From Escherichia coli O157:H7 (lineage in GTDB: Bacteria; Pseudomonadota; Gammaproteobacteria; Enterobacterales; Enterobacteriaceae), in the NCBI RefSeq assembly GCF_013167455.1, contig NZ_CP038328.1: 64,000 nucleotides of DNA. One strand, written 5' to 3'. Of this stretch, positions 14,107-23,780 are shown piece after piece; the first letter of the stretch is position 1, and each line of letters begins with the position of its first letter. The translations under genes were made by a program, and so were the position numbers. The notes below the pieces were generated by a model. The model was not told the DNA's origin, made no database searches, and worked only from the letters and a program-made list of their open reading frames with translations.

Positions 14107-17100
14107 TTATCCAGCGATAATATAACTCCTAAGGTCATTACCCGGGGCAACAGCTCGCGCTCGCGTGTTTGCCAGCCGTTCAACTTGCTGCGGTACTCGC
14201 AGGGCAAAATCAAAGAAGGTATCTTCAATACAGCGCCAGTAGCTAAGCCCCATGTCGAGCAGGACATAATGCTGACTGCCATCGCTGAAGGTGACTGTCA
14301 GTTCTCGTCCATGCTCCGTACTCTGGTTATCCCCCGTTAACCAGCTAATTGCTCCCGGCCACGCAGGCCCCAGATATCCTTCTTCAAGTAAAGTGGTCAC
14401 AACCTGCTGACGATCTTCCTCATTAAGCCACGCGTTATAGAGAGCGTCGTGTTGGCGAGAGTTGTAATCCAATTTTTTGACGCAAACAGTGAGGCTGGCG
14501 CGTTCCGCCATTCCCTGTTCAACCAGCTCGGTTAAGATTTCACCTAACAAACGCGCCGTGAATGGGCTATTAAGATAACGATCGCTGTACTCAACATGCG
14601 TTATCTCTTTGTGGCGGGTAAATGCCTGCTTCCAGCCAGCGTGCTGTTGCGTGACTAACGACCAGAAACGCGAACCAAAACCTTCCAGCGGCCCGTCCAG
14701 TTGTTCACAGAGATTGATGCGCACCGCCCCGGTGGGTAAGGCGGGCAGTAAATCTTCTGCACTTAAGGTCTGACCCGAGAAGGTTTTTCCGGACGTTCCT
14801 TTAAGTGTCACTACTGGTGAAGACGCACTTTGTCCCCATAATTCACCAGGTGCAACGGTAGCGCTGTCGTCTGCGGCCCACTGTTGGCTTTGCCCTTCGC
14901 GAGTCACCTGCGCAAGCCAGCGCCCCTTTCCTTGCATGAGCTGCGCAGTGGCAATGGATTTCACTTGTAAGCGACCTCCCGGCATCGCCGCCAACGCGGA
15001 AAGCTGATGTCTGGAGCTATCAGTTAAGTTTGCCAGCGGCGTGGCCACCAGCAACTCAACATTCCCACCGGAGGAGGCAAACTGGAGCAACTCTTTAAAT
15101 AATGGCCATTGGGCAAAGTCCCACTGTTCCTGCGGCCCCGCAAGAACCAGCGAGCAGGAGTCATAAATCTCGCTGTTCAGGCATTGCGCAATACGTAAAC
15201 TCAGAGGGTTAGTTTCAACCCGGCTACCATCGCCGAAGTACTGATATTCTGGCGCGAGGTTAAGTCGCTGCAACCGTACATTGGTAAGCAGGGTTAATGC
15301 ATGGTGACGATCTAATCTGTTGACATAATGCTGACTGTCGTAGCTGAGCAAGCAGTGGTGACAGAATTTATCGCAACTGCAATCGAGCAATTTTCTGGCG
15401 TAATTAAAGACATCAGCCCAATGGTCGATCAATTGCACTGCATAACCTGCACCACCCGCATTATTGTCGTAAATGAAGATGGAATATCCGGTATAGCCAT
15501 TGATATCGCGCGCTTGCTGCGTCGTCACGCCCAGCTCAGTATTTTCGATACCCAATTTATGCGCTAACCCTTCACGCAAAGCGACCGCAAGGGAACGCGC
15601 GGCAACCTCATCACGGATCAACAGGCCATTATCATCATTGAGTTGCAGCTCAACCATATCTGTACGACTGCTATATCCCAACCACAGATCTTTATGCACA
15701 TGACCGTGGCACAATTTATTGCTCCCCTGACGATCGTTACTGCCCCCTCGCAACAGGTAATGCGTATTTTCCCTCTCTGGGTTCTTTAGATTTTCAGGGG
15801 TACGCTGGGGTTGAGTTTGAGATTCTGCCCGACCACATGAGAGGCAAATTGCGTAGCCGTGCCCAAATTCCCCTTCACTGAAGTGGAACAATTCCCCACT
15901 ATGGCTAAAACGGTAACGTCCTAGCCCAGCATCGGGTAAAGAAACCCACACCGAAGACGGTACAAGAACACGTGGATCTTTCCAGGGAAGTTGTGCAGGC
16001 ATGGATACATCATTATGTGCCTGATAACGAATATCTGTCGCAAAACCAACAGGCTGTAAATAACGCTTCACATCAAGTTGCTGTATATCCGCTTTGCAGT
16101 GACTACATTCGACAGGATGGGTAGTACTGGTTGCCCCCGCACCACATTTACGGCAATGCCAGAACCACGGAATATGATGATCGCCTGACAGCTCCTGCCC
16201 GCTGGCAAGCACCTTGCCAAGCATAATGCCCGAGGAACGATATACTTTTCCGCCCAATACCACATCTGCACCAGGCGCATACTCGCGTAATGCTGTAGGC
16301 AAATCACGGCTGGGCAATTTTTCAATACGACGAGAAAAGCTTTCTCCCCCTTCATTAGGGTCAGCCTGAGTGGCTTTTATTGCGCGACGTTTTTCCAGCT
16401 CATCTGCCGTCAGATAATTGAAATTGACTACGCCAACCGGGAAACCATGCCCCGGCAGGAACGCTTCACTAATGAGTTTAGAAAACAGATATGCACCGCG
16501 ATAATCACGAAGCTGATAAGCGATGGCTTTACCTGCTGGTGTTTCTTCCCACGCGCTGTTATCCGCCTTCAACGCTTCGATATTTTCCAACAGTATCGCA
16601 AGTTGGCTTCTCCAGCGGATATCAACCTGCTGCATCATTGCTTGTGTGCGGGTCAAGAGCTGGGTTGCCGTCAATGACATCAGTACGGTTCCCTGAGTAA
16701 GGCGTTTAAGTTTATCCGCCAGCTGATCGGCCTGGTGATTTAACCAATGGAGAAAACGAAGACACTGGCTCTCATCACCTTCAAAGAACCATTTGCAACT
16801 CAGTTTTGTCGCATCAGGAACTTCAGCTCGTAAAAACAGACCTAAAACCAGGGCATTAACATGTCGTTGAACAATACTACTGCTCCCAAAACGAACCCGT
16901 GGCGCACTGGCAGTAGTGTTGAACGCCCAGAGGGGGTCTTTGAATACCTCCATTCCATGCGCCGTGTTTTTACATAACGTAATGGCAGCAGATGCACTCT
17001 CTCCACGACGCCCCGCGCGACCTGCACGTTGCAAATAATTTGCCGGCGCTGGAGGAACGTTGTTCATTGCCACCAAACTCATACCACCAATATCCACCCC

Positions 17101-23400: not shown

Positions 23401-23780
23401 CCCGAAGCTTGTCCCAGGTTTCTTATCTTTCTTTTCCAGTAGCGAATGCCATCATTAACCAGCTTCTGTCGATGAACATACGGAACTTTCCAGTTAATAG
23501 AATCTAAAATTGTGTCCCATTTAGGGTGTCCGACCGTATGAGTCCGGCGGATAAACTCTGCGGCATATATGCTAAATAGAACATCGCTATAGGAAATGAA
23601 TATCGTTCTTGGATAACTACGGGGGGCATATGTACGCAGTAGTTCTGCCAAACTTTCGTACTCTGTATCAGTACAACGGTAAGCATATAACGCCCGTCCA
23701 TCAGCTCCGGATAATGAACGGCGACTAAAAAACATGTTAAGCCATTGCAAAAGTGGGTTAACTGGAGTTTTCACAAGCAA
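20421..23780 (-). CDS. druH: Large uncharacterised protein (1119 aa), partner of the DruE-like helicase; DruH-like by position and size
   Basis: Track ORF, AT-rich, no motif I can recognise. Track start at 23780 is TTG; a GTG lies 2 codons downstream, so the true start is uncertain. Symbol is assigned by operon context only. Confidence 0.6.
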   Translation of the reverse strand: MLVKTPVNPLLQWLNMFFSRRSLSGADGRALYAYRCTDTEYESLAELLRTYAPRSYPRTIFISYSDVLFSIYAAEFIRRTHTVGHPKWDTILDSINWKVPYVHRQKLVNDGIRYWKRKIRNLGQASGYLHTLACEGGLPIRMIENESGYLITYFRRIYQALRGQSSQYPAAKIAQELGDTIPVTMQNELVYEIAGEFCETLCRLLSEHPPHSSDPVSALRKLSPDWHLQLPLVLPEANAAEIVRRLLSQSSEIRSASSLQVERIWVDVDDSWYCDARFRFPATMRTEQLTSLFECHIQPEQTRLIISGKWKNGGARLAMLSRYEQQDWRVELLPIAMQKLSGADAMAEISLSLHEGPILLGHTIPKGGYELTEELPWVFEAMNESESQLKLVGMGSVSSRLNALFISLPKNSHLDISGEGEFDIPRLLKNSERSLTKISGVFSVVLHDGAVCTIRTQQLYDSAIEYYIKSTEVELVKSDYPVHRAWPKIGWKKDLQYGIVPEKELFWRSIRSGNNAWYSVASEMPKGQIEVRRIVNDEVLFSGKVVVLPADFDINIIPESAQQGIIMLSGITDTRIDKYSNNEKVTLKSDYSQNECAIYYNSSLMLENTVDLRVSWKDGSNLKLLLPKPVSGGRFVTNDGSVHFDGVASIAHLHGIDAELLTISCAGRGYLNIELLDENPVAEKFRYLHADLPLLSGRNDKLQQISLYENYNLLNAMLACAWNSNSTLCVDFYSDRFGKDKATLNIKRYDGSFIEHDQGLLVDIKNSVVFPANRIDELVVDAISLKNPGLHISLLKKDEFAYDLSALNVQDSPWLIVGKLDGTARIAPVIKWMLPVLQTNDLLLNALCEADPEQRKKNFNELIFEIDNNPLQNYCCLLTEYIKKYKMNNGLSLLDLDLFRGISSNYRVVVQLLISSCLSGDSDTIYDIQEELPFSWGWIPVSIWKDVFQKCWTYLEKQINDKTLALHILQPFIAFMNHRAHIDRRLAPIANMLLTYSESLPTGCDVLPTVSREQFNEAKQMLLRNPDSFGRISIFPKELWSSAITPELKSVFNKLWIEDKYHSRLEKRFNLMLVAALLTQKDNNLIHQLSALFEFHYQQAPQQLGVIYQYYFEQAGVCH

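Follow-up and report, generated by a model that had tools for sequence, protein, structure and literature searches.

Two long, adjacent genes on the minus strand of a 64,000-nucleotide stretch of Escherichia coli O157:H7 DNA (contig NZ_CP038328.1; hereafter the window) raise the question of whether they form a Druantia type III phage defense module, as the original prediction had proposed. As predicted, the ORF list contains a gene of 1119 aa, druH (Z5897, YjiT/STY4851 family; 20421..23780), directly upstream on the same strand of a gene whose longest ORF, opening with ATG, spans 14107..20430 and encodes 2107 aa. Read from a conserved ATG at 20421, this second gene, druE (Z5898), occupies 14107..20421 and encodes 2104 aa; druH encodes 1119 aa from a TTG at 23780 or 1117 aa from a GTG at 23774. 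The two ORFs overlap at 20421..20430, and their lengths are beyond chance, so both are real. The window and E. coli O157:H7 chromosomes share 100% nucleotide identity.

The predicted DruH–DruE pattern was borne out by HMM searches, in which both proteins matched their PADLOC models over the full length. DruH scored 2554.9 bits against DruH3 (PDLC00041; protein residues 3–1119, profile positions 1–1117 of 1117), and DruE scored 2184.9 bits against DruE3 (PDLC00037; residues 9–2105, positions 4–2051 of 2055). DruH also matched the NCBIfam model NF038336 (YjiT/STY4851/ECs_5259) at 986.8 bits, over positions 1–1089 of 1090 and against a curated cutoff of 150 bits. This is its only match outside PADLOC, and the YjiT/STY4851 family is DruH under another name, so the concern that the 1119-aa protein might belong to a known non-defense family did not materialize. 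The copy of Pfam-A that we used holds no DruH family; PF27201 (YjiT_N) and PF27205 (YjiT_2nd) appear in precomputed tables only. Full-length phmmer matches to the solved proteins reached 2584 bits for DruH (PDB 9TUD) and 4905 bits for DruE (9TU7–9TUC) and, construct ends aside, the first 158 aligned residues of the window proteins and the PDB chains are identical. An Rfam scan gave no match inside the druH/druE stretch.

Among the scanned neighbor proteins, the PADLOC models for DruA–D, DruF, DruG, and DruM found no match, the only matches being to models of DrmD/DrmMI-type, type IIG RM, Zor, and HNH proteins; because partners of Druantia types I and II are absent from this set, the pair is of type III. 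At least 80% of the druHE pair is present in 505 of 5426 complete E. coli genomes. We consider it highly probable that the pair is the type III (III-A) Druantia druH/druE of island OI-172 of O157:H7, acting by the direct-defense mechanism proposed below. The genes are already known, having been deleted, cloned, phage-tested, and solved by cryo-EM earlier; the original prediction, made from raw sequence, was a correct rediscovery of a characterized system.

DruE carries Pfam DEAD, Helicase_C, and MZB (formerly DUF1998) domains, in keeping with the DUF1998 helicase that had been predicted. The RecA1/DEAD domain (19537..20139, minus strand; Pfam DEAD, E 5.6e-24) includes the Walker A motif GTGSGKT (20056..20076; G118, G120, and K121 in the 2104-aa numbering) and the DEAH motif (19660..19671; D251 and E252). 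Further along the same strand are Helicase_C, or RecA2 (17002..17217; Pfam Helicase_C, E 1.8e-12), with the RAGR arginines R1135 and R1138, and the MrfA zinc-binding domain MZB (15349..15588; Pfam PF09369, E 7.1e-12), with C1681, C1683, and C1687. The published DruE residues G118, G120, D251, E252, R1135, R1138, C1681, C1683, and C1687 are thus all present, as is the dimerization domain (residues 678–759), and there is essentially no sequence difference from the 9TU7 chain, which has been described as III-A. In published work, function depends on the helicase and MZB motifs: mutating the Walker A and DEAH residues cost defense, and motif mutants abolish protection (Himpich et al.). In DruE, we found neither a Pfam PLD domain match nor the canonical HxK(x)4D PLD motif, the sole H.[KR] after residue 1690 being HGR at 2037.

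The upstream protein had been called functionally opaque, a description now out of date, as structural and activity data for DruH appeared in 2026. All nine of the residues Y670, N672, H689, Y733, D735, R1031, H1062, R1064, and K1067 occur at their published DruH positions, in a part of druH (20580..21773, minus strand) whose ssDNA/ATP pocket residues have roles assigned by Hu et al. and Wu et al. What DruH does is contested among four 2026 preprints, which describe it as an ATP-inhibited ssDNA binder in which ATP competes with ssDNA (Hu et al.), a 3'-5' exonuclease (Loeff et al. 2026, Pseudomonas), a dimer-dependent nickase and phage sensor (Wu et al.), or a scaffold without a catalytic domain (another 2026 preprint). 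A recent cassette exchange as the source of the low-GC part of druH was considered and rejected because homologues show the same GC profile.

Both start codons that the original prediction had offered for druH, TTG or GTG, are in place. The translation start region (23774..23792, minus strand) reads AAGGAAGG-CAGG-TTG-CTT-GTG, in which the purine-rich AAGGAAGG (23792..23785) precedes the TTG (23780..23778) and, two codons in, the GTG (23776..23774). RefSeq and Hu et al. take DruH from the TTG, as a protein of 1119 aa. The PADLOC DruH3 model aligns from residue 3 and the 9TUD chain reads ..METPVNPLL, both of which point to the GTG and 1117 aa. In a start-codon comparison, the GTG at 23774 is invariant across five enterobacterial lineages, and the position of the TTG at 23780 is TTG, ATG, ATA, or CTA across enterobacterial homologues. 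A homologue search with the N-terminal 240 aa of DruH gave two fragments only, of which the one with 68% identity was used for the start codon; Klebsiella and E. coli plasmid copies are identical at both sites and so do not discriminate between the candidates. Overall, the comparison favors the GTG at 23774 as the start of a DruH of 1117 aa and, the candidates being TTG and GTG, the start is non-ATG in either case.

The helicase ATG had likewise been placed inside the last codons of the upstream gene. The overlap itself stands, extending 10 nt from 20430, but the accepted start lies slightly further on. At the junction (20419..20436, minus strand), which reads AGGAG-T-ATG-TCA-T[TGA]TG, AGGAG (20436..20432) is followed by the ATG at 20430, by the druH stop TGA (20423..20421), and by an in-frame ATG (20421..20419) that shares its A with that stop (TGATG). 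DruE has 2104 aa from the ATG at 20421 in RefSeq/PGAP, in Hu et al., and in the 9TU7 construct, whose chain reads ...F-MDVQQ and hence starts there. This ATG is invariant in the Enterobacter, Serratia, and Yersinia homologues, where the codon at 20430 is TTG. The ATG at 20421, rather than that at 20430, is the accepted start of DruE. The stop/start overlap is kept in the same three genera, and in a MAG of the Pseudomonadales it takes the form GTGA; the junction of the Klebsiella and E. coli plasmid copies is identical to that of the window. We infer that the overlap couples translation of druH and druE, although defense is also restored when the two genes are supplied on separate plasmids (Himpich et al.), so such coupling is not obligatory.

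In the mechanism that we propose, druH and druE would be transcribed together, joined by the stop/start overlap. DruE, an MrfA/YprA-family SF2 DNA helicase with an MZB zinc-binding domain and, at its C-terminal end, reported tandem PLD-like domains, would load on exposed ssDNA or 3' tails, ends that linear replicating or recombining phage genomes may offer and that the closed host chromosome would not. It would then unwind the duplex 3'→5' at the expense of ATP. DruH, a ring of α-helical terminal domains and Ig/Fn3-like domains whose pocket binds a DNA base or ATP, would act on the same ssDNA intermediates and is required alongside DruE. Infecting DNA would be disabled while the cell survives, which would make this direct defense rather than abortive infection.

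Had the pair given no phage protection, the original prediction would have fallen; the published result is the opposite, as both the EDL933 locus and cloned druHE protect. In EDL933, deleting druH, druE, or druHE sensitizes the strain to Bas26, so both genes are required. When carried on a plasmid, druHE defends MG1655 against 38 phages, with culture growth even at an MOI of 10 (Himpich et al.). DruE has been described as a 3'→5' helicase that forms dimers and is activated by 3' overhangs. Himpich et al. report no reproducible DruE nuclease activity and find the PLD domains dispensable; an ATP-dependent nuclease activity of DruE is, by contrast, described both by Loeff et al. and by Wu et al., and Pseudomonas PLD-pocket mutants of DruE lose defense (Loeff et al.). 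Nuclease roles for the DruE PLD region and/or DruH, a stable DruH–DruE complex, and sensing of phage proteins by DruH are all contested or conjectural.

The surroundings of the pair are those of a defense island. Within the leuX island, OI-172, druHE lies between a divergent Zorya type II operon and ARMADA II downstream, the three systems together making up nine genes. The Zorya operon, zorA2/zorB2/zorE (23992..27465, plus strand; PADLOC ZorA2 1003, ZorB2 346, and ZorE2 584 bits; RefSeq), is transcribed divergently from druHE (Li et al.), and the druH and zorA2 promoters presumably both lie in the intergenic region at 23781..23991, where the matches found were to promoter consensus sequences only. 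An island boundary at 38393..40499 is formed by a site-specific integrase (38393..40366, minus strand; RefSeq) adjoining tRNA-Leu(CAA) (40415..40499, minus strand; ARAGORN, Rfam). On the other side are the ARMADA II genes (1..13883, minus strand; PADLOC and RefSeq, names per Li et al.): the SNF2/DrmD-like armA (11025..13883), armB (6088..11022), which encodes a DrmMI/type IIG-like methyltransferase, and armC (1..6088), a DruE-like helicase gene truncated at the edge of the window. Between druE and armA, the 223-nt gap contains a predicted terminator-like hairpin (13952..13989, minus strand) with the stem GGGGGCCTT / AAGGCCCTC, a 12-nt loop, and a following T6 run; RNA folding of 13884..14110 gave −66.3 kcal/mol (z = −3.6). 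A simple terminator scan for loops of 3–8 nt missed this hairpin, apparently because its loop is 12 nt, and it was found by folding.

A quite different function has been claimed for druE, namely that Z5898 is a DEAH-box RNA helicase regulating motility via fliC and OI-172 a "motility-associated island" rather than a defense locus. An EDL933 ΔZ5898 strain made less flagellin, expressed less fliC, and swam more slowly (Xu et al. 2013, PMC3681947), and some RefSeq records still name the gene "motility-regulating DEAH-box RNA helicase." We judge this account very improbable: an EDL933 druE deletion had no effect on fliC Northern blots or motility (Himpich et al.), the solved proteins closest to DruE are, besides the DruE structures, MrfA/YprA (6ZNP), which are DNA helicases, and phage defense phenotypes of druHE come from several laboratories. 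E. coli K-12 carries yjiT and yjiV fragments, and genome matches include IS-interrupted alleles of the pair in some strains, as would suit a decayed or inactive remnant. For the genes in this window, such a reading is barely conceivable, since both ORFs are intact and match models and solved proteins end to end, and EDL933 has an active, identical locus.

The question of autonomy is weightier. The pair could form one half of a DISARM-like supersystem of six genes, druHE-armABCD, where DruE would serve as a DrmA+DrmB(+DrmC)-type helicase and ArmA/ArmB as a DrmD/DrmMI-type SNF2 helicase and methyltransferase. All six genes share one strand, druE and armA being just 223 nt apart, the PADLOC scores of ArmA against DrmD (333 bits) and ArmB against DrmMI (191 bits) fit the assignment, a Klebsiella plasmid without Zorya carries druHE together with armA and armB, and Druantia III and ARMADA II show strong synergy (Li et al.). 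We nonetheless think a dependent druHE improbable. On a plasmid by itself, the pair protects MG1655 up to >10^6-fold, is nontoxic, and is unimpaired in a methylation-free host (Himpich et al.), and in EDL933, deletion of either system alone has its own phenotype. A terminator-like hairpin with a T-run also separates druE from armA, and ArmC gives ARMADA a DruE-like helicase of its own.

Returning to the pair as an autonomous type III module, what this analysis adds is the start-site argument (GTG for DruH, ATG 20421 for DruE), the conserved overlap, and the variable low-GC half of druH. Because every tag tried on DruH abolished defense in one group's report, these additions could help construct design. 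A joint model, in which DruH starts at GTG 23774, DruE translation is coupled to druH termination at TGATG and so fixes the protein ratio and, more speculatively, druHE and armABCD form one DISARM-like supersystem on shared DNA intermediates, strikes us as doubtful; if true, the shared-intermediate supersystem would explain the synergy of Druantia III with ARMADA II.

Compared with known systems, the pair shows graded likeness. The Bacillus subtilis repair helicase MrfA/YprA (6ZNP), the best solved DruE relative outside defense systems (E 1.4e-19), has the same helicase core with MZB and 3'→5' translocation, whereas it has 751 aa, acts in repair, and lacks a DruH partner, the dimerization domain, and the PLD region. 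DruE resembles a fusion of the DISARM class 1 proteins DrmA, DrmB (DUF1998), and DrmC (PLD). Membership in DISARM class 1 was rejected, as DruE scores ≈38 bits against DrmA versus 2185 bits against DruE3; there is no separate DrmB or DrmC gene in the druHE pair, and the nearby DrmD/DrmMI-like genes are those of ARMADA II. Unlike DISARM class 1, the Druantia module includes no methyltransferase and shows no dependence on methylation. Druantia types I and II reportedly have the large DruE helicase with DUF1998 in common with type III, and DruE scores 576 bits against DruE1 and 361 bits against DruE2 in PADLOC. These types differ in having DruA–D or DruM/F/G partners instead of DruH, and their DruE has a non-PLD C-terminal nuclease-like domain and no type III-specific dimerization domain.

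Closer still is the type III system of Pseudomonas aeruginosa (PaDruH/PaDruE; Loeff et al. 2026), which has the same two-gene architecture and domain plan: PaDruH comprises an α-helical N-terminal domain, six Ig-like domains, and an α-helical C-terminal domain, and PaDruE is an MrfA-like helicase with DUF1998, OB, and tandem PLD domains. It is a distant orthologue with different residue numbering, and not every laboratory has reproduced its DruH exonuclease and PLD-dependent DruE nuclease activities with the E. coli proteins. With the E. coli III-A proteins (EDL933 Z5897/Z5898; the ATCC8739, NCTC12923, and ECOR19 homologues; 9TUD and 9TU7–9TUC), there is no biological difference: residues are identical wherever compared, only the assumed start codon varies (DruH 1119/1117 aa, DruE 2104 versus 2107 aa), and the window encodes essentially the same proteins.

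We examined the minus-strand gene pair at 14107..23780, which the original prediction had read as a type III Druantia module of DruH and DruE. Both open reading frames have exactly the coordinates and lengths first proposed, with druH at 20421..23780 (1119 aa from TTG, the earliest start-capable codon) and the longest druE frame at 14107..20430 (2107 aa from ATG). The HMM search suggested at that stage supports the Druantia III reading: in PADLOC, the first protein matches DruH3 (PDLC00041) at 2555 bits over profile positions 1-1117 of 1117, and the helicase matches DruE3 (PDLC00037) end to end at 2185 bits. 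These full-length matches exclude a decayed remnant. The first protein also falls within the NCBIfam family YjiT_fam (STY4851/ECs_5259; 987 bits, cutoff 150), and its family is absent from the Pfam-A copy used. DruE carries the Pfam domains DEAD, Helicase_C, and MZB (formerly DUF1998), as well as Walker A (GTGSGKT) and DEAH motifs. An Rfam scan returned zero matches within druHE.

The locus corresponds to O-island 172 of EDL933, where druH and druE carry the designations Z5897 and Z5898, respectively (Li et al., bioRxiv 10.1101/2025.09.22.677730). Deletion of druH, druE, or druHE each removes resistance of EDL933 to phage Bas26. Most phage resistance of this strain has been ascribed to Druantia III and ARMADA II acting in synergy (Li et al., 10.1101/2025.09.22.677730), and this synergy, along with the joint travel of druHE and arm genes on plasmids, suggests that druHE and armABCD may form one supersystem. 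However, druHE is sufficient alone and methylation-independent; in MG1655, it confers protection from 38 BASEL phages and does not kill the host (Himpich et al., 10.64898/2026.05.13.724758). The same authors report that protection is lost with the DruE substitutions G118V/G120V, D251A/E252A, R1135L/R1138L, and C1681G/C1683G/C1687G, and every one of these residues is found at its stated position in the window DruE numbered from ATG 20421. A 2013 paper (PMC3681947) instead called Z5898 a motility-regulating RNA helicase, a name that persists in some RefSeq records, but on re-testing, motility and fliC were unaffected (Himpich et al., 10.64898/2026.05.13.724758), and the solved relatives are DNA helicases.

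The non-ATG start (TTG or GTG) originally predicted for druH holds under either candidate, ATG being unavailable. The sequence 5′ of druH reads AAGGAAGG CAGG TTG CTT GTG AAA, which places TTG at 23780 and GTG at 23774. RefSeq and Hu et al. (10.64898/2026.05.12.722862) both take the 1119-aa protein from TTG; the DruH3 alignment starts at residue 3, and the chain of the PDB structure of DruH, 9TUD, reads ..M-E-TPVNPLL, corresponding to a construct that takes GTG as the start. For comparison, we used homologues from one DNA-pattern scan of genome contigs for the DGRALYAYRC motif (L005-L011) plus a metagenomic contig (L004). At the site of TTG 23780, E. coli and Escherichia sp. E1V33 both carry TTG, Serratia PL17 and Yersinia proxima carry ATG, the metagenomic contig carries ATA, and an Enterobacter MAG carries CTA. 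All five enterobacterial lineages keep the GTG two codons further on and the CTT preceding it unchanged, although the surrounding codons differ at synonymous sites, and a purine-rich AAAGG(A) lies ~5-10 nt 5′ of the GTG in each. The invariant GTG, the variable upstream codon, and the AAAGG(A) element together favor, without proving, GTG 23774 (1117 aa) as the ancestral start.

At the druH/druE junction (AGGAG T ATG TCA T[TGA]TG GAC), ATG 20430, the start of the longest druE frame, sits 10 nt inside druH, so the helicase ATG predicted within the end of the upstream gene is indeed present. A further ATG in the same frame, at 20421, overlaps the druH TGA stop by one base. In Enterobacter, Serratia, and Yersinia, TTG occupies the first position and the stop-overlapping ATG (TGATG) is unchanged; the overlap in a Pseudomonadales MAG is GTGA in place of TGATG. 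The spacing from the AGGAG is 1 nt for ATG 20430 and 10 nt for ATG 20421; as Shine-Dalgarno distances, the former is too short and the latter workable. RefSeq, the construct of the DruE structure 9TU7, and Hu et al. (10.64898/2026.05.12.722862) all use a 2104-aa DruE. Because the stop/start overlap is conserved, coupling by termination-reinitiation is plausible, yet it is dispensable for function, as complementation still occurs with druH and druE placed on two plasmids (Himpich et al., 10.64898/2026.05.13.724758).

Of the two proteins, DruH is the faster to diverge, with identities (DruH versus DruE) of 63% versus 80% to Serratia and 94% versus 98.5% to a Klebsiella plasmid copy. The divergence is concentrated at about DruH residues 500-1000, which coincides with a trough in GC content. 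Over 20600..22400 (residues ~460-1060), GC content is 0.33-0.39, compared with 0.43-0.48 in 5′ druH and 0.45-0.55 in druE, and this low GC is common to the homologues. The stretch is also the least conserved, with identities of 38-62% to the Serratia, Yersinia, and Enterobacter homologues and 87-91% to the Klebsiella copy. The pattern fits the positive selection inferred in published work for the Ig-like domains of DruH (Wu et al., PMC13192584).

Many E. coli O157:H7 chromosomes match the 10-kb druHE region at 100% identity; of 5426 complete E. coli genomes, 505 have at least 80% of the region, and 18 of the matches are located on plasmids. RefSeq, in its annotation of an O157:H7 chromosome identical in sequence, and PADLOC together place Zorya II (zorA2, zorB2, zorE; 23992..27465) divergent from druH, and the ARMADA II genes armA (11025..13883), armB (6088..11022), and armC (1..6088, running past the left window edge) after druHE on the minus strand. 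ArmC is a second DruE-like helicase on the island (DruE3, 348 bits; PADLOC). The druE-armA gap (13884..14106, minus strand) has an unusually strong fold (z = -3.6) with three hairpins, at 14073..14099 (a 12-bp stem just after the druE stop), 14014..14032, and 13952..13989. The last, terminator-like with a 9-bp stem then T6, suggests that druHE may be at least partially separated from ARMADA II in transcription.

IncFIB plasmids of Klebsiella pneumoniae (NZ_CP031815) and E. coli (NZ_CP026578) likewise carry the druHE-armAB block; the former has IS1 upstream of druH and lacks Zorya II, and the latter has zorABE, druHE, and arm all together. Some strains carry interrupted alleles (O157:H7 F8092B and E. 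coli DSM 103246), with ISEc8 in the druE region and IS2 in druH. The gene directly 3′ of zorE (27850..28857, plus strand) encodes a phosphorothioated-DNA-binding restriction endonuclease (NF045808, 417 bits; PADLOC HNH), which would be a fourth defense function on the island. Further along the leuX island, neighboring plus-strand genes encode proteins of 257 aa (31441..32214) and 438 aa (32366..33682), flanked by an HTH regulator (30860..31324, minus) and a serine recombinase (33881..34519, minus). Neither protein matches PADLOC, NCBIfam, or Pfam-A, and the sole match of the larger is phrog_37220, a function-unknown family; they could be an uncharacterized cargo pair. A tRNA-Leu(CAA) lies at 40415..40499 with an adjoining integrase. 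Rfam matches away from the defense genes (46514..46708, 47542..47713, and 37944..38060) comprise Ysr276 antisense RNA, naRNA4 (twice), and an ALIL frameshift pseudoknot, which belongs to an IS3-family element.

In the account of Hu et al. (10.64898/2026.05.12.722862), DruE is a 3′→5′ helicase whose dimer is asymmetric, topologically closed, and activated by 3′ overhangs, and DruH has six Ig-like domains and a pocket for which an ssDNA base and ATP compete. All seven pocket residues from that study (Y670, N672, Y733, R1031, H1062, R1064, and K1067) are present in the window DruH. What DruH and the PLD region do is still a matter of dispute. Wu et al. (PMC13192584) place DruH in the YjiT family, note a resemblance to baseplate-J proteins, and describe dimer-dependent nicking by DruH and cleavage of long DNA by DruE. 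In the Pseudomonas system, DruH is reported to be a 3′-5′ exonuclease and the DruE PLD pocket a nuclease needed for defense (Loeff et al., 10.64898/2026.05.13.724313), whereas Himpich et al. (10.64898/2026.05.13.724758) report reproducible nuclease activity to be absent and the PLD domains dispensable. The start-site evidence and this disputed biochemistry are what give the finding its residual value. druHE itself is an already known system with cryo-EM structures of these very proteins, PDB 9TUD being essentially the same protein as the window DruH (2584 bits) and 9TU7-9TUC essentially the same as the window DruE (4905 bits).
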